The notes under the pieces are model-generated. The model saw only the letters and a list, made by a program, of their open reading frames with translations. It searched no databases and was not told where the DNA came from. Below, piece by piece: positions 37,073 to 59,900 of a stretch of DNA of 64,000 bases. Position 1 is the first letter of the stretch. The number at the start of each line of letters is the position of its first letter. The position numbers and the translations under genes were made by a program. Location: contig CM000431.1 in assembly GCA_000165345.1 (NCBI GenBank), forward strand, positions 1 through 64,000, given 5' to 3'.

Positions 37073-39127
37073 ATGTACGCAAAAGAAGATTTTGGAAATG
37101 CGAATATAAGTCAATTTATTCGACTAAATAACCGGCTAAGAGCTAATGGGTTTTTATCAATACCGTTTCTTCCTGATTTAACTTCTCCTGCTAGATCTCT
37201 TATACTAAATAGAAACCAAGTTGAAGAAGATAATAATGAAGGTACAAATTATTTAAGATACGCAAACCCGGGAGTGAGATTATCAGAAAAATTGGTTCAA
37301 ACCTCAATGATCTCTCAGAATTTAAATGATGTAACTACGCCTCAGAATCTTTCACAAATTGGAGAAACAGAGAGGCAAAATGATAAGTTTGAAATCACTC
37401 CAGGTATTCGTAAGTATACTGATTCTGAATATTCTGGTTTAAACACAGATGATTTGAGAACTGTAGGTTCTATACTACATGGAATTTGTGCTGACAGAGA
37501 TAATTCATTTGAAAATGAACAAAATGTTAATTCTGTAACAGAAATTGCAAGAGAACACTCTGTATCTGGAAGAAATAAGATGGATTTTCCTTTTGATATG
37601 CCGTCAAATTATAGCTCTAAATATGGGATGAAACCTGATGGTAATTTTAGATTAGGGTCAAGTATTGAGCTTTCTTTCACTACTGAACAACCTGAATCCT
37701 TGTCTATGGCAGCTAAACCAGAATCTATTGAAACTAATCAAAGGTTAATAGTTGATGGAAACAAACTCATTTCAACTATTCACAATTTACTATATGAATT
37801 AGAATCTCGAGGTGAACACACTGTTGAAACTATAAACTCTGAAAGGTCACAAAAAAACGGACTTATAGAAAAGTTAAACCTCTTGAGAAGGAAATATGAA
37901 GCCTTAGAGAAAGAGAATGAATCTCTTAGAATGATAAATAGAGTTTTAACCGAAGAAGAACAATCTAATAGAAAAAATAGGGTTCAAGGTAGGGAAACCC
38001 CGCAAGGCTCTGCAATTAGCAAGTTAGAAAGAGAGAAACAGCAACTTCTTGTTGAAAATAGCCGACTAAAACAAGATATTCTAAAGCTTCAAGAGGATGA
38101 TGATAAGTCAAGAGATAAAGCTGATCAATTTTTGAGGTCTGTTAAGAACAATCTGGACAATGAAAGAGATTCTAACAGAGCCAGCACCTTCAACCATACG
38201 GGTACGAGCAGTAATATTAGTGGAACAACCTTAACAACTTTAGAAAAAAAGAAAATTCTTCAATCACACTACCTTTACTCAATAATTGTAGGATTTGAAA
38301 AATCGATCAGCTATTGGAAATTGCAAGCCAACGGACAAAATAACTTAGATTCTAAAAACGGGCAAGACTCATTTGAGGGTAATGAAACTAATTTAGGAAA
38401 TTCAAATGATACTATTTCTGAGAAATCCTTCTTTGAATTTTGTCAAGAAAATAATATTTCCACAAGTGAGTTAATGAAAAGAGACAAGAATCTTTGGACC
38501 AGAGGTCTTTATATGTTACAGAATACTGATAGATCTGAATTAGAAAGCATAGTTAGGTGGTCTTGTAGGCTACTTAATATATCAAACTTTAGAAACATTC
38601 CGATTCAAATTGGACAACTATTAGCCAAAAAGAGTACTTCAGCAACCCCGAAAATCACTCATATTTTCGAAAGTGCTTCATCCAAGAAAATTTCCTCCCA
38701 AAATAATAGCCAAGAAGTCATATCAATTGAACTACATGATCGTTTCTACAACCACTTTAAAACTCTATTTGATGTACTTGATGATCAAGACGTTATCCAA
38801 GCATCTAATGCAATATATATACAACTGAGAGATTTTAAGAAGTTTTTCAAAACTATTTGCTCAACTTTAAGTCTTGATTACAAAACCACCTCTCCCAATG
38901 AATGCCTAAAGATTCTCACTGATCTAATTAACATAAATCACTCAAAGAAAGCTCCAAATACTCAACCTCAGATCCAGTCTTTCCAAGAGAACTCTTCAAA
39001 TGTTCATAATATCATTGAGTCTCTTAAAATTGTTTTAGATGTTGATTCGAATGACCAGATTCTTCCCACTCTAAAGCAACACCTTGAGTCCCAATCTGCT
39101 ATTATTCTTTCTCTCTCAAAGAGCTAA
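37073..39127 (+). CDS. Hypothetical coiled-coil protein, 684 aa
   Basis: ATG at 37073. Central heptad-rich stretch (LIEKLNLLRRKYEALEKENESLRMINRVL...LEREKQQLLVENSRLKQDILKLQEDD). Confidence 0.5.
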   Translation: MYAKEDFGNANISQFIRLNNRLRANGFLSIPFLPDLTSPARSLILNRNQVEEDNNEGTNYLRYANPGVRLSEKLVQTSMISQNLNDVTTPQNLSQIGETERQNDKFEITPGIRKYTDSEYSGLNTDDLRTVGSILHGICADRDNSFENEQNVNSVTEIAREHSVSGRNKMDFPFDMPSNYSSKYGMKPDGNFRLGSSIELSFTTEQPESLSMAAKPESIETNQRLIVDGNKLISTIHNLLYELESRGEHTVETINSERSQKNGLIEKLNLLRRKYEALEKENESLRMINRVLTEEEQSNRKNRVQGRETPQGSAISKLEREKQQLLVENSRLKQDILKLQEDDDKSRDKADQFLRSVKNNLDNERDSNRASTFNHTGTSSNISGTTLTTLEKKKILQSHYLYSIIVGFEKSISYWKLQANGQNNLDSKNGQDSFEGNETNLGNSNDTISEKSFFEFCQENNISTSELMKRDKNLWTRGLYMLQNTDRSELESIVRWSCRLLNISNFRNIPIQIGQLLAKKSTSATPKITHIFESASSKKISSQNNSQEVISIELHDRFYNHFKTLFDVLDDQDVIQASNAIYIQLRDFKKFFKTICSTLSLDYKTTSPNECLKILTDLININHSKKAPNTQPQIQSFQENSSNVHNIIESLKIVLDVDSNDQILPTLKQHLESQSAIILSLSKS

Positions 39128-39379: not shown

Positions 39380-40180
39380 ATGGATTTTGAAGATATTCCT
39401 TTTGAGGAAATTATAAGAAAAGAAAAGATAGCTGAGTCATTCGAAAAAAGAAAAAGTGCAGAATCAGAAAAAAAAAATGCCAATGGATCCTACAAATCAT
39501 GCAAAGAATTTGAGAAAAATGATGAAATCGATCAAAGACTCAAAAAATATGGAAGAATTACTTCAAAGAACTCTCCAATGGAAGTATCATCTAGAAGACA
39601 AATTTTACCAGAAAAACTAGAAAATGAAAGAAACTATATCAGAAATAAACATGACAGCTCAAAAAAAGGCAATGATCCTAGATTTAATGACTCTTGTGGA
39701 AAGCTCAACACTGACTTATTCCATAAATCATATGACTTCTTAGATGACATGAGACAAAGAGAATTTAATCAGATCAAGAATACATTAGATTTATACAAAA
39801 TTATGACCAAGTCTAAAGAACTTGGAACATGGAATAAAGTTAAGAAATCATCAAAATTTAAAAACTCTGATGTAAATCATCTTACTCAAGACCAAATTGA
39901 CAATCTCAAACTTAAATATCAGAAACTTGTTTCTGAAAAAGATCATAGAAAAAATCTTTACCTTAAACAGCAAACCATATCGCAACATAGAAAGCAGGAA
40001 CAAACTAAAATTGAATCAGGAAAGAAGCCATTCTTTCTTAAACAAAAAGATATCAATTTATCTATTCAACATGATAAATATAAAAATCTTAATAAAAAAC
40101 AAATATCAATGCTTGAACAAAAAATTAATAGAAAAAATGTCTCCAAGTTTAAACCACCAACTTCTCTTAGAAAAATATAA
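39380..40180 (+). CDS. Lysine-rich probable nucleolar protein, possibly RRP36-like (rRNA processing)
   Basis: ATG at 39380. C-terminal KKPFFLKQKDINLSIQHDKYKNL...KQISMLEQKINRKN resembles the RRP36/DUF947 KKPY(F/Y)LK...kY..Lk pattern (recollection, weak). Confidence 0.4.
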   Translation: MDFEDIPFEEIIRKEKIAESFEKRKSAESEKKNANGSYKSCKEFEKNDEIDQRLKKYGRITSKNSPMEVSSRRQILPEKLENERNYIRNKHDSSKKGNDPRFNDSCGKLNTDLFHKSYDFLDDMRQREFNQIKNTLDLYKIMTKSKELGTWNKVKKSSKFKNSDVNHLTQDQIDNLKLKYQKLVSEKDHRKNLYLKQQTISQHRKQEQTKIESGKKPFFLKQKDINLSIQHDKYKNLNKKQISMLEQKINRKNVSKFKPPTSLRKI

Positions 40181-40302
40181 AAGATTATTACTCTCGAAAT
40201 CCTATATAGTTATTTTTAATTCATCATATTAATCAATTTGAATATATATAAGATTATATACTTTAATATTTCTATAATAGATACTTTTATACCTTCTCAT
40301 TT

Positions 40303-41075
40303 TTATTTCCTTCCGAGAATTCTTCTGAAAAATACATATATATTTGCTAACAATAGTACAAATATTATGAAATATAGCATCAGTCTCTCAATTACTTTCT
40401 GCTTGTATAATGTACTTGCCAATTTACGACTCTCCATGATATTATAATCTATATTATTCAAACCATATTTGCTTCTTGTCAAGTTATCCCTTTGAACTGT
40501 TAAAGTATTCAAAGAATATAATCCTATATGTTGTGTTTCCTGAGCTAGGTTTGCAGATATTCTTAAATTATCTTCATTCCTTTTCATCAAATCTTCTGTA
40601 GAAACTCCCATATTATATTCTTTTGTCGATGGTTTTAAATAATTCTGACCGTCATTACCACTAATGTTTGTACTCATATCCAACTCTTTATTAGAATAGT
40701 AACTACTAGCCATGCTCTCCTCTCTATATGTGTCAAACTTCCTATATATGTCTTCATATACTCTCTGATATCTTTGATACGATTGGTATTCAATCGAATT
40801 CTTAGATAACGTCATAACCTTAAAAAATAGTTAAACAAACTTAAAAATTGGAAATATAGACATTAAATTTAACTTACTTCATCTTTCAGTTGATCCAAAC
40901 ACTTCTTTGCATCCTGAAATCGACGTTCCAATATAGATATTTCATCCTGTGTAAATTTCTCCCCTCTTCCTCCATCTTCAATATTCACACATTTGAGCAC
41001 TAAACGTTCTATTCCTTGTATAACAGACAAAAACTCCTCTTCATATGACACAAAATACTCGGATGCTGACAACAT
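40303..41075 (-). CDS. VTI1: Vti1-like Qb-SNARE, tail-anchored; two exons join(40878..41075, 40303..40818) with a 59-nt intron
   Basis: Exon 1 (MLSASEYFVSYEEEFLSVIQG...LDQLKDE) resembles the Vti1 N-terminal helix; it is followed on the minus strand by GTAAGT at 40877..40872. The intron ends ...TTTTTTAAG at 40819, and exon 2 is in phase 0 (VMTLSKN...). Exon 2 carries a SNARE heptad region and the C-terminal TM MLYFIIFVLLLANIYVFF. The ORF track shows two separate ORFs, 40869..41075 and 40303..40815. Confidence 0.65.
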
Positions 41076-41126
41076 TTATCAATATTGTTTAATACCTATT
41101 TATTCAATAATTTATATTAAGATCAA

Positions 41127-41139
41127 TTCCCGCCAAAAA
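41127..41139. promoter_or_regulatory. E2F-consensus-like TTCCCGCCAAAAA (rc TTTTTGGCGGGAA) ~55 bp upstream of the Vti1 ATG
   Basis: Direct reading. Matches the canonical E2F site TTTSGCGCS/TTTGGCGGGAA. Confidence 0.4.
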
Positions 41140-41834
41140 TGTTTGTATTAATAAACTTTGCATGTATAAGAATTTGTTAAAATAATTATTAATTAAATTA
41201 TTATGAATAGTTCAACTTATATTTCTGATAGTATCCGTAGTCAAACAAAAGAGTATATAATCAACTTACCAAAATATATGAATTAATATTATAAAGAATT
41301 TCAACATTGAAATTTCCCACACTATTAACATTACAATCATAAATGTTTGCCATCTTGTATAGAATATTTGTGCCGTTATATGATCATTATTTTTATTAAT
41401 ATGGATTGAATTAGATCAATGAGTCCTTTCCTTGATTAAACTTGATTTTTATACTTATCCTCAAACAATTATAATGCGTAGTTACCCATAAAATGAAACA
41501 ATAATTTAAAATATTTTAAGCTCCAATTTATATTAACAAACTCTTATTCAAATTTTAGTAAGATAATTAATCGTTAAGCAATCATTTTAAGGGAATTAAA
41601 ATAATAACATTTAATTGAAATCCAGAATTGATATTTTCCGAATTAAAGGTCAATTTTGATTATTTGAAAAATTTTTGAAAATCGATATGAATAAATGATT
41701 GTTAGTACCAATTGAAGACGTTTGTAATTAAAAAAGAATAAATTGTAATTACTTATTAAACAAATATATATGTAATATATTTACAATATATTGATTTCTT
41801 CAATTTCAAACAATTGAAATTTTTTATTAATGAA

Positions 41835-44116
41835 TTAGCATTTTCCATCTTTAGAATCCTTACATTCAAATCCTCCAGGTGTATTTATACAACACTGTGA
41901 TTTACCACAATAATTACCCACTTTACATTCATCTATATCACGGCATGTGAATCCATCTCCTGTATAGCCTTCTGAACATACGCACTCAAATTTACTTAAA
42001 TCATGCGTTGTTTCAAAGATTGAATGTACGTAACATTCCGCATTTTTGGAACATTTGCTACAGACTTCATTCTTAAAGTTTTTCTTGACTTTTTTTGGTA
42101 TCAAAAACATTGGATTATTGAATCTATACTCATCTCTAATCCATTTAGAAATGTGAGATGCTTCATTGCTTAAATCTGATTTATTCATCATAATAGAATG
42201 CATTAAGACGGGTTCTGATGAAATATATTCAATCTCACGATACATATTTGCATCTTTTGATAATGAAATGAAGTATATATCAATATCTTTCTTCAAGCTA
42301 ACGATTCCTGGGCATGTCTTCACAGAAGTACAACCATTAAATCCTGCAGTGATGTATACTATCTTTCTTCTCTTTAATAGCACCTTATTATGATAGCCTC
42401 TTTGATTTGAATGAGAATCAGTACCATTTTGTTGTGCAATAACATTTAATACTCTTTCTGAGTCTTGCTGTGCAACCATACTTAACAATCTATCAACCCT
42501 CATATTATTGTCAGAGCCTTGTAATGTTGATATGAAGCTCGTATGCCCTTGGGTTTTGTTTTGTTCATTAATTGGAACTGACAAAATTTCAGTATTTATT
42601 CCACTCTCGACCAAATTTCTATAAATTACATTTGCAGACAAATTAATTTCTTTCATTTGATCAATATTTGGTACTTTAGACAGATCCATTACTAACGAAA
42701 CTGCATATTTTGGTGGTTCGCTTGTGGTTGTTGTAGTATTTGGATACTCAGTTGTAGTGGTTGTTATATCTGGAATTGTTGTAGTTGTGGTAGTTGTTGG
42801 ATATCCTGTTGTGGATGTGGTTGTTGGATAACCTGTTGTAGAAGTGGTTGTTGGTTGTCCCGTTGTAGAAGTGGTTGTTGGATAACCTGTTGTAGAAGTG
42901 GTTGTTGGATAACCTGTTGTAGAAGTGGTTGTTGGATAACCTGTTGTAGAAGTGGTTGTTGGATATCCTGTTGTAGAAGTAGTTGTTGGATGTTCTGTTG
43001 TAGAAGTGGTTGTTACATTTGGAGCTTTAGTTGTAGTAGTTGTTGGGCTTCCAGTTGTGGTGGCTATTGGACTTCTAGTTGTAGATGTGGTTGTTACATT
43101 TGGAGCTTTAGTTGTAGTAGTTGTTGGGTTTCCAGTTGTAGAAGTGGTTGTTGCATTTGGAGCTTTAGTTGTGGTAGTTGTTGGATTTCCAGTTGTAGAA
43201 GTGGTTGTTGGACTTCTAGTTGTGGATGTGGTAGTGTTTGGACTCCCTGTTGTGGTAGTTGTTGGATATCCTGTTGTGGATGTAGTTGTTACAACTGTAG
43301 TCGTTGTGGTAGTGATTGGAATATTTGGGTATTCTGTTGTTGTGTTGTTGGGAAAGGATAAACTGGATACTCGGTTGTTGTTGTTGTTGGGTATACTGGA
43401 TATTCTGTTGTTGTTGTGGTGGGGTATACTGGATATTCTGTTGTTGTCGTTGTTGGGAAAGGATAAACTGGATACTCTGTTGTTGTTGTGGTTGGGTATA
43501 CTGGATATTCTGTTGTTGTCGTTGTTGGGAAAGGATAAACTGGATACTCTGTTGTTGTTGTGGTTGGGAAAGGATAAACTGGATACTCTGTCGTAGTAGT
43601 TGTTGGAATTGGGTATATTGGATATTCTGTTGTTGTTGTTGTTGGGACTGGGTAAACTGGGTATCCTGTTGTTGTTGATGTCAAATTTAAAATATAGTCA
43701 TATTTGTGGCTATTCCATCCCATTTGGTAAACATTTTTTTGATGATGATTGTAATGATAATGATGGTTTTCCTTTGGTATATAATTAAAATGACTATTAG
43801 TATAAGACCTTTCATCATCGGTTGTATCTATATATTTAGGAGTATATGTATTATAATAAGTGTTATAATATCTATAATTATGGTGGCTTTGATGGTGGTT
43901 GTGTTTATACTTATGACTCTGAGATTCTGCCACCTTTCTATTTAAATTTGACGTACCTTCATCTGTCAAAATTGCATTATTTTCATCATAATCATGTTGA
44001 TTTTCTGGTGAAACCCATGTATCTTGTTCATCAATATCAGAAGCAAAAATAATTGTTAAATTTATCAATAGGAGACCTATTGAGAGAACAAATTTTTTAT
44101 TTAAAACTCCAAACAT
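41835..44116 (-). CDS. Secreted mucin-like glycoprotein with C-terminal EGF-like domains; reading frame broken by a 1-nt frameshift at ~43337-43350 inside an (ACA)n Thr-codon run
   Basis: Upstream ORF 43289..44137: real ATG at 44116, signal peptide MFGVLNKKFVLSIGLLLINLTIIFA, His/Tyr/Asn-rich segment, then ~10 x TTTTTEYPVYP(FP). Downstream, frame +2 is open and encodes (TTTSTTGYP)n, TTTTKAPNVTTT, a globular region and DIDECKVGNYCGKSQCCINTPGGFECKD EGF-like modules, ending at 41835. The joint is ACAACACAACAACAG versus ACAACAACAACAACAG in sister repeats. Confidence 0.65.
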
Positions 44117-53933: not shown

Positions 53934-56900
53934 ATGGCTTTAGAAAGGGATATTTTTGAAGATCTGGGGAGCAGTTCTGCCTCAATGTTGGTGGTGTCTG
54001 TGGGGAGTTTGAAGTTATATTCCAAAATACTAAAGCTCTTACCAGGCACATTCAAAATTGCATTGTGTGTGGGCTTAAGGCATGAACCAATTAAAGATGT
54101 CTCCTGCGTAACAAAAAGAAGAGTTTTTGCAACTTTGAGCAGATACCATAATGGGAGTGATGCTGAAGCGGACCAGATTGAGCATCGAATTCAGCATAAC
54201 TTTGGAATTCCAATTCCATTTTGTCTAGATAACAAGGCGACAACCGTTCGTCTTGCTATTTTCTTGGTAATGAATGACAGATCACTTGTTCCAGTCTGTA
54301 GGTCAATGATAAGACTAAGTAGCACAAGAGATCCAACTACTGCAATGAAGTGGTTTCCACTAGTTAAGTATAATGGATTTACAGGGGTGGGTAGTGTTGA
54401 TAACACGGATGAGTTTGAAGTAATTGGGGAACCAGGGAAAGAGAAATTAGTAAAGAGACATTTGGTTGTAGGATCAATTCAAATACTAACTAGAAGAGTT
54501 TTACAAGAAAGAATTGGAAGACCAGATCTTCATGATGCTTTATGCTTTTCAACATTGTGTGACGAAAAAAAATCTAGGAAATCTTTGGCAGAACAATACG
54601 ATGACTCTTCTTCTGAATACAACTTTTCAGAAAAAGATTTATCTTGTAACGAGCTTGATGAGGAAAAAGATAATTTATTTAACGGTAAATATACATCTAA
54701 AATAAAAGGTTGTTATTTAGAGTCTTCGATTGAGTCATTGGAAGATAAAATCCCTTTCCCTTTTATACAATTTAAAGATATTTTATCAAAATATCCAACA
54801 TTGCAAAATATTTTCCATTTAATGCCATTATATAATCAAAAGATTAATAAGAGAATACTTATGTTGCAAAAAAGAAATAAAAATGCTAAAGTTGTTTTAA
54901 TTGGAGATGATTTTAGTTCAAATTATAGGAGTGGGATATCTATGCCTATAAAAGTCCCATCTTCAATTGAGAATATTATGAGCAGTTCTTTGGACTGGAA
55001 CACTTGGTTTTGCAAATCCGTTGATATTGCAATCATGCAAAGTGTTGAAGCTTATAGTAAATCAACTATATTTCCATCTACAAGTAAGTACAAGGCAGGA
55101 AAATGCGATATGAACAAGAAATCAAGCTACAATTTTGTTGGAAACAAGATTTCGACTTACCACTTTGAATATTTCATGAAAAGTTTGGAGTCTAATATGG
55201 ATGTTCTTTTAGTTAATACCATTTTTGGTGCAGCAGCAACTGAGTTCTCAAGGGACATTATTGATGATGTAATTTTCAGAGGTAAGAATCAGGTAAGAAA
55301 GTTTACGCCTTATAAGAACTTGTTTGTAATTTGGGATTATATGATTAAAAGGAGCTATCAAGAGCTAGGAATGGATTATGACATTAAGCTGAATAACGAA
55401 GAAAAGATGGATGATTCAACTTTGGAAAACAAAGTTGGCGAAGAAGTTGTTGAAGTACTTAATATAAGTGATATTTCAGACACTGAAACCCATAACATTA
55501 AGATCCAGGAAACAAACTTTTGTAAACTTGAGAATGACTTTGAAGAATTTTCAGAAATTGTTGCTTTTGATGAAAATATACCTAAAGTTGCCGAAGATTC
55601 CTCTTCAGAAATTAGTCAAGACCAAGCAAATGAAACTATTCCTTTATATAACTCTTTAAAAAGGAAAGTCGTAGATTCAATTGAAAGGAGCCAAATAATT
55701 CCATTATCTGAGGATCATCCCTTCTCAAGTTTAAGGTTATTTGAAAATGATCGTGTATTCATACATCATAAAACAATCGGTAGAGGTTTACTCGGAATCT
55801 TAGTTCTTGGAGATAGTCAAACTTCGGCTGAGGATGCATCAAAGATATATACAAGGGAAATTTCTGCACATATGGCAATTAACGAAGCCATCTTAAGGAC
55901 TAAAGTAAAAAAAGCTATTAGGATCTACAATTCTATCTCTAAAGGAAAGATCCCCCCAAGAAAATTTATACCAAATTCAAAAGCTGTTATTGGGTACGAT
56001 GGCTATATTGATCCTAAATTAAATAAAAAATTAAGTGATTTTGAAATCGCCATGATTCTTCTTAAGGGTATTGATAAGTTCGTTAAGTGTAGCTCAGAAA
56101 TCCTCCATCCTTCAGTAAACTTGACTACAGTAAGTCCATCACTAATAACATGTGTAGATTATTCAGGATTTAGGATTGTAGTGAGACCACTGCCACCAAT
56201 ACCATTCACGATTTGCGATTGGCCATTACCAATACAAAGCAATGAGAGGGGCGAAATTTCCAATATTGAAAAATGCCTGAATATTAGCAATATTCTTCAT
56301 CCAACAAAGCTAATTTCAGAGATAAGGCATTTACCAATCTTGCTTGAGACTTCCATTGGAATTTTCAAGTATTACAACTTTCATCATACATATAATATCT
56401 TCCCAAGGGATCCTTGGGTTTCGGATGTTAAAGGAGAAAGAGTTAATTGGGGGAATTCTTCAACGGATGAATATTATCATAATTACGATACATTTTCGAA
56501 AAATAAACTCTTAAGCAGAAATAAATGCTGCACCATAAGGCCTCTTTTCATTAAACAAGCAGGAGCAGTTCAAGATATGCTCAAATATCAAGATACTGAT
56601 GAAAAGTTGAGGAGATTCCACTACACCCCTGATGATTTACACGAACTTTTCAGGAAAGAAATAGAGCCTTCTGGTTTTTGCTTAGTTTGTGCTTCGGATG
56701 TACAACAAAGGAGCTATGGATTTTTTAATATTAATAAAGAAGCTATGTTGTTTAAGCCAGTACCAATGAATTTAATTAGCAAGTTTACAGAAACGACAAC
56801 TAATTATTTAATCAAAATTAATGATGGTACTCATTGTAGCTTATGCGGAAAGTCTATGAGAGTAGAGACTCAAGCAAATTCTAATAATCAAATGGAATTG

Positions 56901-59900
56901 ATATCGTATATTGGAGACAAAATTCCATATCCAACACTCGGCCATTACGACGATGGAGCTGCGATAAAGATGAACAGAGTTAAGTTAATGACTTCTTATA
57001 TGCAATCATCTAGTGACTATTTCTCAGAATGGAGCTTCACTGAAGGCGATGTTTTTAGAAGAGATCAGATTTTCTGGGAAAGGAGGCCAGGATTATACTG
57101 CCTTCCAAGATCATGTATTAAAGGGGGGGGAAATTTGCTAGGAACAGGGCTGGATACAATTAAATATTTGCTATCTCAAGCAAAATTACTTTTGAATGCA
57201 TTTGATGACAATACAAGATTCTCTTCAGCTTCTGACTTTAATAGAGAAGAAAAACTCAAGATTGTGAAAGGTGTTGATGTTTTTGACGAACCAAAGAGAC
57301 AAAGCACAGTAAAGATATTCTTTGATGAGTCTAATATTGGCCAGGAGATTATACTTCTCTCAAATTCTCTGCATACAAATTGGATTGAAATAGTTTTGAA
57401 CCAGCTGGAAAGTATTCCAGCATTTGCACCTTATGATTCTGTGACTTTGGAGAATTTTCTTCATTCAAGAGGAGTGAATTGTAATATGCTAGGCCGGATG
57501 TTAAACTTCACAAGATCACCTTGGTTGAAACAACTATTTTCTATTGAAATAGTTTCTAGAACAATTAAGAATCTAATTCCCAGGCTGATTAAAACGTTAT
57601 TTTTACCAGGAGCAATCAGTTATATGAAGAAAGAAAGTGGAAATTTAGGGAGATATTGCCCTTGCCATAGCTCAAGTCCAAGTGTGTCTATGTTACACAC
57701 AATTTTCAAGATATATATAACTTCAACAAAGAGGAGGATAGGGAGTGAATGTATTATGATTAATAGCAGTGCTAAGGATTCAAGATCCAAGTTATTTTCA
57801 TCACAGTTCCTAAACACAGATGTAGTTGCAGATCAGGAAAAGGTGATTCATAGAGAAATGAAAAACGAAGAGAAAGATACTGCAAATAACAGTAAATCAC
57901 TAATGATTCAATCTCCAATCTATTGGAATGAGATTTTTAAAGCCCTAAATGAAAATAATTGGGATATTTTAAATGTTCATAATATAAAGATTAGTGAAAT
58001 ATCCAAACTTCTTGTTGATTGGGCTTCACAATTCTTTAATGTTGATGATAATATTTTAAGTTATACAAACAGAGAAACATTAAACTCTAGAAAAAAGGAA
58101 AATGATAAATTGGAATCAGAAAAATCAGATTTACGTCGGTTTTCTAGAGAGTTAATTCAAATGAATAAGATGAGCCTTCCATATTGGGTTTTGGAGTGTC
58201 TGTTTAGCTTAAACCAAAAAAGTTTAATTATGCTCAGAAGACATAGATTTCACCAAATTACAATTTTACAAGTAATGTTGACAAATTTATTCAACTTAAT
58301 TTTAGGAGACTCACCAAATTCACAGCTATTTTGGTCAACATGTATCTCAAAGTTATGCTCTTGGGAATTTTCTATTGCTGAAACTAGCATTTCCAAGAGC
58401 AAAATACCAATAGGAGCTTTATTCTATGCTTTAAAACATCATACAGGAGTCAAATTTTTCTTGGATATTAAAAAGTTAAAGGAAAATCTCCAGGATGATT
58501 CAACTTTTCCTATCAATTACGATGATTTTGATTCAGTTTTGCCTAAAGCAAAGAGAAAGAGTGAACAATACTTTTCTGAGAGTCTTCCAATTTGGGGAAT
58601 TTTAGAGACTCCAGAGATTATTAAATTGCCAAGATATAACAGCTTTTCTGTTATTTCCACCCCAACTATTTCACAAAAGTTAATAGCATTAAGTATAAAA
58701 CTTTCAGCAAGCTATTTTACAAATATTCAGTTCTTTTTGGATTATATGACCCATTCAGAGCAATTTCAAGGTGCTGAAAGACATCTTGTTAGACAGGATT
58801 GGATTGTACAAGAATCCTGGTTAGAACTTCTGGGATATTTCTCATATCTTGAATATGACAAAAAATGTATTCAAATTCTTAATAATGTAATCAACCTCTT
58901 TCCTCAGGATCATATTGCTTCAGTACAAATGAGAATTCTACAAATGTGGTCATATTCAAGATTAAGGAACATTGAAATATTCAAGAATACTGATTTTAAT
59001 GCATTAAATAACAATTTTGATCAGATCAGTATATCAGAAAAGTCTATACCACATGAAATCAGTGTTTCAACTCTAATTTTTGAAATCATTGATTTACATT
59101 GGTCAGTTATTCATCCTATAATTATTGATGTATATACTTCAACAGCCTTGATACATTTCTTAAGAGGAAACTGGAAATCTTGTGAAGAAATTTTGGAAAA
59201 AGCTATTACTAAGTCATTAGTAATTAGCAGTTGTTTTGACAGTAATAGTGATGTTTTTAGGCATTATAGCAAATTATTGTCTAGCAGAAAAAACTCCAAT
59301 TGGGAATTTGAAAATAATACGTTGGATTCAAATAGCTCCTTAAAGAACCGAATTTTGTTAAGTAATATCAAGTATGCAATAAACTCTAAGGATACTGATA
59401 AATCAATTATTCAAGGTATTTTTGGCCTTCATGGAAAGGATGAAAATGAATTAGAATATGAGTTATACCAAAGATTCCTTAATTCTAATCTACAGTATAT
59501 TCCTAGACTACTAAATACTATTGAAAATCCAAATCCAAACAGAATTCCAAAAACTCCCCCTAAATTGAGGATTGGATGGTTACTTAAACAGCTTGGACGA
59601 GTTAGACTGATACATGCATTACATTTGTACTATTTTAACAAAAACAATAAAGAATTTAGATTTTTAAAAGAAACTGATATTCAATCAACTGATAGTACTG
59701 AAGAATCTATCAATGAAAGTATTGGGAAAAATGAAATCAATACACTTGCTTTATTGGATGATTCGATTGAATCCATCTTGGAACTTTCTTGCTTTACAAC
59801 ACAGTGGGCATTGGATATATTTGATTATTACTTGGGAGCAACAACTCTTGAAACTGCAAGCTGTTGTTATGATTTGGCTTATGGACTCATCCTTCTTGAT

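Follow-up and report, generated by a model that had tools for sequence, protein, structure and literature searches.

A single two-exon gene with a 59-nt intron very probably encodes a tail-anchored Vti1-family Qb-SNARE in Cryptosporidium parvum

Two adjacent open reading frames (ORFs) on the minus strand of C. parvum DNA belong, very probably, to a single gene of two exons, which is interrupted by a 59-nt intron and whose product is a tail-anchored Vti1-family Qb-SNARE. The gene was found in a stretch of 64,000 nucleotides (positions 1 to 64,000 of contig CM000431.1, assembly GCA_000165345.1), the whole of which is called the window here, and it presumably lies at the left end of chromosome 3. 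Telomere repeats, (CCTAAA)n, degenerate and full of errors, fill positions 1-600 of the window and probably extend further; an opening of this kind marks a chromosome end. In CP044420.1, about 38 kb separate the Vti1 gene from the start of the record, and the assembly of the window reaches about 2.1-2.3 kb further than three other C. parvum assemblies.

In the proposed arrangement, the primary transcript would carry a U2-type GT-AG intron of 59 nt (40877..40819), and its removal in phase 0 would give a tail-anchored Qb-SNARE of 237 aa. Exon 1 would supply helices a and b of the Habc domain, and exon 2 helix c, a disordered linker, the SNARE helix and the membrane anchor. The parts of the gene in the window are the following:

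40878..41075 (-): exon 1, 198 nt, ATG plus 65 codons, MLSASEYF...DQLKDE, encoding the predicted Habc helices a and b
40819..40877 (-): intron, 59 nt, GT-AG, phase 0, 17% GC, GTAAGT...TTTTTTAAG
40872..40877 (-): splice donor GTAAGT, adjoining the last codon of exon 1 (GAA, 40880-40878)
40830..40834 (-): putative branch site TTAAC, its presumed branch A at a distance of 12 nt from the 3' splice site
40819..40828 (-): T-tract and acceptor, ATTTTTTAAG, with TTTTTTA before the AG at 40820-40819
40303..40818 (-): exon 2, 516 nt, 171 codons plus stop, VMTLSKN...RRILGRK*, encoding the predicted helix c, linker, SNARE motif and membrane anchor

Directly upstream of the ATG of exon 1 is an adjoining in-frame TAA. 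Exon 2 opens in phase 0 with GTT ATG ACG (V M T) at 40818 and closes with a stop codon at 40305-40303, and splicing joins codon 66 (GAA) to codon 67 (GTT) to give the 237-aa protein. The initial annotation of this DNA had joined the two ORFs in the same way, and its coordinates, donor, acceptor, phase 0 and 59-nt gap were all exact in the window sequence. Its product size of about 238 aa was nearly so; the actual length is 237 aa, and the figure of 238 is reached by counting the stop codon. Without splicing, a stop is encountered two codons into the intron, and the reading frame (ORF 40869..41075, minus strand) yields a 68-aa fragment that ends in ...LKDEVS* and is devoid of both the SNARE motif and the anchor. 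The intron length of 59 nt is not divisible by 3, and the GC content of the intron is 17%, against 30-36% in the exons. Signals such as the T6 tract and the TTAAC motif (the latter at 12 nt from the 3' end) are to be expected by chance in AT-rich DNA. An alternative acceptor, the AG at 40841-40840, was rejected as not viable, because the resulting 38-nt intron runs straight into TTT GTT TAA.

We then scanned both strands of the window for intron candidates. A candidate needed a GT[AG]AGT donor, an acceptor made up of a T-tract and AG at a distance of 35-120 nt downstream, and an open, in-phase reading frame of no fewer than 50 codons on either side. Two candidates passed, the Vti1 intron and a segment of 81 nt at 60165-60245 (+). 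The latter lies within a continuous ORF of 2757 aa (53934..62207), which needs no splicing, and it is most likely a chance motif. Thus, with only two candidates in the window, one of which needs no splicing, the signature of the Vti1 intron is more than chance.

Comparison with deposited gene models gave full-length identity. The spliced 237-aa product was 100% identical to the C. parvum proteins QOY42364.1 (CPATCC_000985), WKS76757.1, WRK31250.1 and KAL5369364.1, which are deposited as "V-SNARE-like protein" or "KOG1666/V-SNARE domain containing protein". A gene of 773 nt with a product of 237 aa is also present in three further, independent C. parvum assemblies, and the DNA of this gene is identical to that of the window; a 773-nt range with a 237-aa product implies the same 59-nt intron in all three. 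CPATCC_000985 does not differ from the window gene in product or in gene span. The same 90%-identity cluster contains 237-aa models for C. hominis (e.g., CUV04831.1), C. meleagridis and C. tyzzeri; for C. canis there is a model of 236 aa. The initial annotation had called this a Cryptosporidium gene, in agreement with the 100% identity in three C. parvum assemblies. Its further claim of one gene across a 59-nt intron fits the identity of the product with the 773-nt models and the conservation of the intron position in seven species.

The flanks of the gene in the window showed 99.5% identity to CM109963.1 and 97.7% to the other two assemblies, differences that are consistent with a repeat tract in a neighbouring gene. 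The minus-strand gene upstream of Vti1 (about 42793-43681) has a weak Pfam match to cEGF and is internally repetitive; it matches itself, with an identity of about 77-88%, when shifted by roughly 80-220 nt. Its annotated product measures 751, 770 or 781 aa depending on the assembly. Alignment of the window opened 2 gaps against CM109963.1 and 37-39 against the other two assemblies.

Agreement among assemblies also bears on the idea that a pseudogene, or an assembly error, disrupts a once-continuous ORF and that there is no intron. The noisy, error-rich telomere repeat at the start of the window suggests a long-read assembly and would fit an error of this kind, but the 773-nt gene is identical in the three further independent assemblies, the interruption falls at the same codon, with splice signals, in seven species, and purifying selection persists on both exons. 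No continuous ORF was found in the loci of related species, and no non-synonymous excess was seen there. We consider this explanation almost certainly wrong.

Among the three assemblies with the 773-nt gene is GCA_015245375.1 (IOWA-ATCC), for which Baptista et al. published the annotation in 2022; according to these authors, 100% of its introns have RNA-seq support (PMC8744675). We infer splicing of the Vti1 intron from this published statement. Earlier, with RNA-seq, the proportion of genes that contain introns had gone up from 4.3% to 10.8%, with introns of 99 nt and 22% GC on average (Isaza et al. 2015, PMC4637869). The 59-nt Vti1 intron is short but typical for C. parvum. The supplement of Isaza et al. 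2015 has no entry for SNARE, KOG1666, PF05008, PF12352 or PF03908, and our literature search returned no paper in which a Vti1 of Cryptosporidium is named or characterised. A look-up of the exact 237-aa protein returned genomic contigs and no transcript contigs, and a 23-mer across the spliced junction had 0 matches in JGI contigs; both results are uninformative on splicing. The intron is already known, the correct model having been public since about 2015-2022.

Older records treat the locus differently. In C. hominis TU502 (2004), it is represented by two separate hypothetical proteins, XP_665467.1 (68 aa) and XP_665468.1 (170 aa); in C. parvum Iowa II (2004; XP_625332.1/EAK87308.1), the 170-aa part stands alone, as does the exon 2 part (170 aa) in XP_067202235.1, a recent RefSeq model for chipmunk genotype I. 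These split or truncated records correspond to the same locus and to exactly the two ORFs of the window; they miss the intron, and the Habc helices a and b are lost or appear as a separate "hypothetical protein". Thus, the locus is the annotation trap that the initial annotation had suspected. Other models deviate in other ways. The C. felis model KAF7456304.1 (191 aa) has the intron right and a different, truncated C-terminus without the membrane anchor, and in one C. canis model (221 aa) the first 15 codons of exon 2 are missing. An in-frame ATG 9 codons upstream of the start of C. serpentis KAL7066165.1 brings back the conserved MLxASEYF N-terminus. Several public records, of which XP_625332.1, XP_665467.1 and XP_665468.1 are superseded, therefore still split or truncate this SNARE, and the value of the present analysis lies in annotation quality and not in new biology. 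Trafficking catalogues built on the flawed records would lack the Habc domain or include a 68-aa gene that does not exist. It is also evident from this case that a short intron can be recovered from sequence alone in an intron-poor genome.

The 2004 annotations amount to a reading with two independent small genes, of 68 and 170 aa. It is in line with the separate TU502 deposits and the solitary 170-aa record of Iowa II, and both ORFs start with ATG in C. parvum; later evidence-based annotations, however, merged the two ORFs. We compared the window with the orthologous loci of C. canis, C. felis, C. serpentis and three Cryptosporidium assemblies from Logan. An intron was present at the homologous codon, after ...[DR]E, in seven of seven species, C. 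serpentis included, and exon 1 measured exactly 198 nt in all six species of the intestinal clade. Across the seven species, GT and AG were invariant, with donors reading GT[AG][AG]GT and acceptors of the orthologues reading TTTAAG or CCTTAG. Intron lengths were 59, 48, 50, 46, 57, 57 and 78 nt, with mixed remainders modulo 3; in-frame stops were present in six of the seven introns, and the remaining one (C. felis) shifts the frame. A YTRAY motif lay 9-28 nt from the 3' end of the intron in all seven, which is weak evidence in AT-rich DNA.

Pairwise divergence in the intron interior was 0.498, with 21% gap columns, and matched that of third codon positions (0.476-0.50). By first, second and third codon position, divergence was 0.19, 0.145 and 0.476 in exon 1 and 0.15, 0.095 and 0.50 in exon 2. 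Since the intron diverges at the third-position rate and first and second positions at 0.10-0.19, both ORFs are constrained and the spacer is not. Judged from these substitution patterns, both exons are coding and under purifying selection, and the spacer is unconstrained. A gap that keeps GT and AG in every species, varies in length and diverges neutrally speaks against two independent genes. Moreover, the ATG at 40815, with which the 170-aa ORF starts, is not conserved: C. canis has VATLS, C. felis AVTLS and C. serpentis TEILS at this place, and its absence from these three species argues against an independent downstream gene. C. serpentis is a gastric-clade species, and its orthologue has 44% protein identity; conservation of the intron in this species suggests that the intron is old within Cryptosporidium.

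The unconstrained interior also bears on regulated splicing, by which retention of the intron at some life-cycle stages would produce the 68-aa fragment or lower the dosage of Vti1. Nothing speaks directly for such regulation; the stop two codons into the intron would make a clean truncation upon retention. Against it stand the lack of constraint within the intron and the report by Baptista et al. of only three putative alternatively spliced genes, which have other locus tags (PMC8744675). We regard regulated splicing as highly improbable and retain the two exons of one SNARE gene, joined by splicing, as the preferred reading.

The family of the spliced protein was addressed with Pfam, which returned three matches:

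residues 151-233: Sec20 (PF03908), 24.3 bits against a gathering cut-off of 27, E=2.9e-05, the lowest Pfam E-value
residues 144-199: V-SNARE_C (PF12352), 23.0 bits against a cut-off of 27.1, E=1e-4
residues 5-83, across the exon junction: V-SNARE N-terminal (PF05008), 21.8 bits against a cut-off of 25.9, E=2.5e-4

All three matches of the C. parvum protein fell below the curated gathering cut-offs, which indicates a divergent family member. With phmmer, an exhaustive comparison against 1.84 billion representative proteins yielded 74 matches, many of them full-length across the junction (query 4-231 against targets of 215-245 aa). The best matches outside the genus were from Vitrella and Voromonas, close relatives of the Apicomplexa. 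From these results we built an alignment of 34 rows (A2), made up of 32 full-length matches from outside the genus and 2 Cryptosporidium sequences. PF05008 was found in 33 of the 34 rows and PF12352 likewise in 33 of 34, that is, each in at least 31 of the 32 rows from outside the genus; among the other 39 phmmer matches, 38 carried PF12352 and 20 PF05008. This comparison set was drawn from matches to the spliced query and so favours proteins that resemble both halves.

A Vti1 profile was then made from A2 without the rows of the query and the C. serpentis orthologue. The profile of exon 1 alone aligned to positions 2-59 of this Vti1 profile with a probability of 97.5%, that of exon 2 alone to positions 72-225 (99%), and that of the whole protein to positions 2-225 (99.8%). 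The exons thus align to consecutive parts of the Vti1 profile, which indicates that the two ORFs are pieces of one family architecture and speaks against two independent genes. With a profile made from Cryptosporidium sequences only, the sole solved structures matched with E <0.01 were Vti1b (1gl2_C, E=4.5e-6) and Vti1a (2nps_C). On this profile-profile and nearest-relative evidence, the predicted protein is a Vti1-family or Vti1-like Qb-SNARE. The label Vti1-like, given in the initial annotation, therefore holds, since the nearest relatives outside the genus carry both PF05008 and PF12352 and the two exons align in order to the Vti1 profile.

A single spliced gene could instead encode another Qb-SNARE, of the Sec20, GOSR or NPSN type. 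Sec20 had the lowest Pfam E-value, and no Pfam match passed its threshold. Yet the Sec20 match is confined to the generic SNARE-plus-anchor region, and the Sec20 model was also matched by 27 of the 34 rows of A2; since A2 consists almost entirely of Vti1 homologues, we take the match as cross-family noise and reject Sec20 as the family. In contrast, the N-terminal domain matches the Vti1-specific PF05008 and the Vti1 profile, Vti1b and Vti1a were the only solved structures reached by the Cryptosporidium-only profile at E <0.01, and the Vti1 architecture is found in at least 31 of the 32 full-length relatives outside the genus. Another Qb type is very unlikely, and the assignment to Vti1 is kept below.

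We next considered the features of the protein and its predicted structure. The relevant codons in the window are as follows:

40402..40599 (-): Qb SNARE motif, about residues 140-205, with the PF12352 match at 144-199
40494-40492 (-): CAA codon of Q175, aligned to the Q of ...GEQRDQL... in the Vti1b chain 1gl2_C
40327..40383 (-): C-terminal membrane anchor, L212-F230, a hydrophobic run read from the sequence and followed by RRILGRK

The Q in ...GEQRDQL... of 1gl2_C we take to be the central-layer residue, and the column of Q175 is nearly invariant (at least 90% conserved) in A2. The AlphaFold2 (AF2) model had a mean pLDDT of 85.5 and contained helices at residues 4-34, 43-67, 75-116 and 140-235, with a disordered linker at about 121-137; the anchor is continuous with the SNARE helix, the two forming the single helix 140-235. 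The exon junction (residues 66/67) falls where helix b ends and before helix c begins. In a Foldseek search of the PDB, the highest target-normalised TM-score, 0.73, was obtained with the Habc domain of mouse Vti1b (2qyw). No match in this search was significant by E-value, a three-helix bundle being too simple a fold, and we count the score as agreement with the Vti1 assignment and no more. According to the model, neither ORF product alone could form the Habc three-helix bundle. This, too, is at odds with the reading of two independent genes, which we find hardly credible, and it is in keeping with one spliced Vti1 gene.

In Vti1, the Habc domain is a binding site for sorting adaptors, and by analogy with the yeast and mammalian proteins the Habc domain of the Cryptosporidium protein would act as a sorting handle. 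In yeast and mammals (e.g., PMC2137825, PMC3680383), Vti1 provides one of the four helices, the Qb helix, of the SNARE bundles that act in fusion of the Golgi, endosome and vacuole type. On the same analogy, the C. parvum protein would contribute the Qb helix to QabcR four-helix SNARE bundles, and the fusion steps that it serves would be of the Golgi, endosome and vacuole type, as for yeast Vti1p and mammalian Vti1a and Vti1b. The likely setting in Cryptosporidium would be post-Golgi traffic to secretory organelles.

We also inspected the surroundings of the gene. Downstream, an RRP36-domain protein of 266 aa (39380-40180, plus strand; PF06102) converges on the 3' end of Vti1, and a 684-aa protein without a Pfam match is encoded further on (37073-39127, plus strand). 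This downstream gene order is kept in the Cryptosporidium loci that reach that far, including C. serpentis; the gene calls of one locus are without it. Upstream, a box, TTTGGCGGGAA (41127-41137, minus strand), is conserved 55-61 nt before the Vti1 ATG in five species, and its counterpart in C. felis, TTTTGGCGGTAA, lies at -107. The box TTTGGCGGGAA resembles what we take to be an E2F-type promoter element, and it is plausibly a promoter motif of the Vti1 gene. At 41225-41269 (-), about 194 nt upstream of the ATG, we observed an invariant GGTA[AG]GTT, with the donor at 41269, which is followed after 37-55 nt by a pyrimidine-rich YAG in six of six intestinal-clade species; the pattern was not found in C. 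serpentis. An ORF of 30 aa beside this element (41261..41353) is not conserved as coding. The segment might be an unannotated 5'-UTR intron or a small non-coding transcript, a speculative reading that we think unlikely. An Rfam scan of 40000-42000 gave nothing near any gathering score.

Among known systems, the best match outside the genus is Vti1 of Vitrella brassicaformis (CEM14179.1), which is similar over the full length and has both Pfam domains. Its gene has seven introns, as mapped with cDNA onto the genome, compared to one in Cryptosporidium. None of them occupies the homologous site; the nearest follows codon 57, in phase 0, at a distance of 7 codons upstream, and a common intron position with Vitrella is therefore not demonstrated. 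In comparison with the Vti1 family at large, the Cryptosporidium protein shares no more than about 20-25% identity with homologues from outside the genus, and in place of the juxtamembrane RRxxTNK consensus of Vti1 homologues it has YKQKVIER. As a separate and equally doubtful suggestion, this loss might reflect a lineage-specific change of Vti1 function. The overall plan is that of yeast Vti1p and mammalian Vti1a and Vti1b, in which a predicted Habc bundle is followed by a linker, by a SNARE motif that has a glutamine at its centre, and by a membrane anchor. The 237 aa of the protein fall within the 215-245 aa of the family, and it has in common with Vti1 proteins an N-terminal motif of the SExFxxYExxF type and an AxETExIG...QRExL core.
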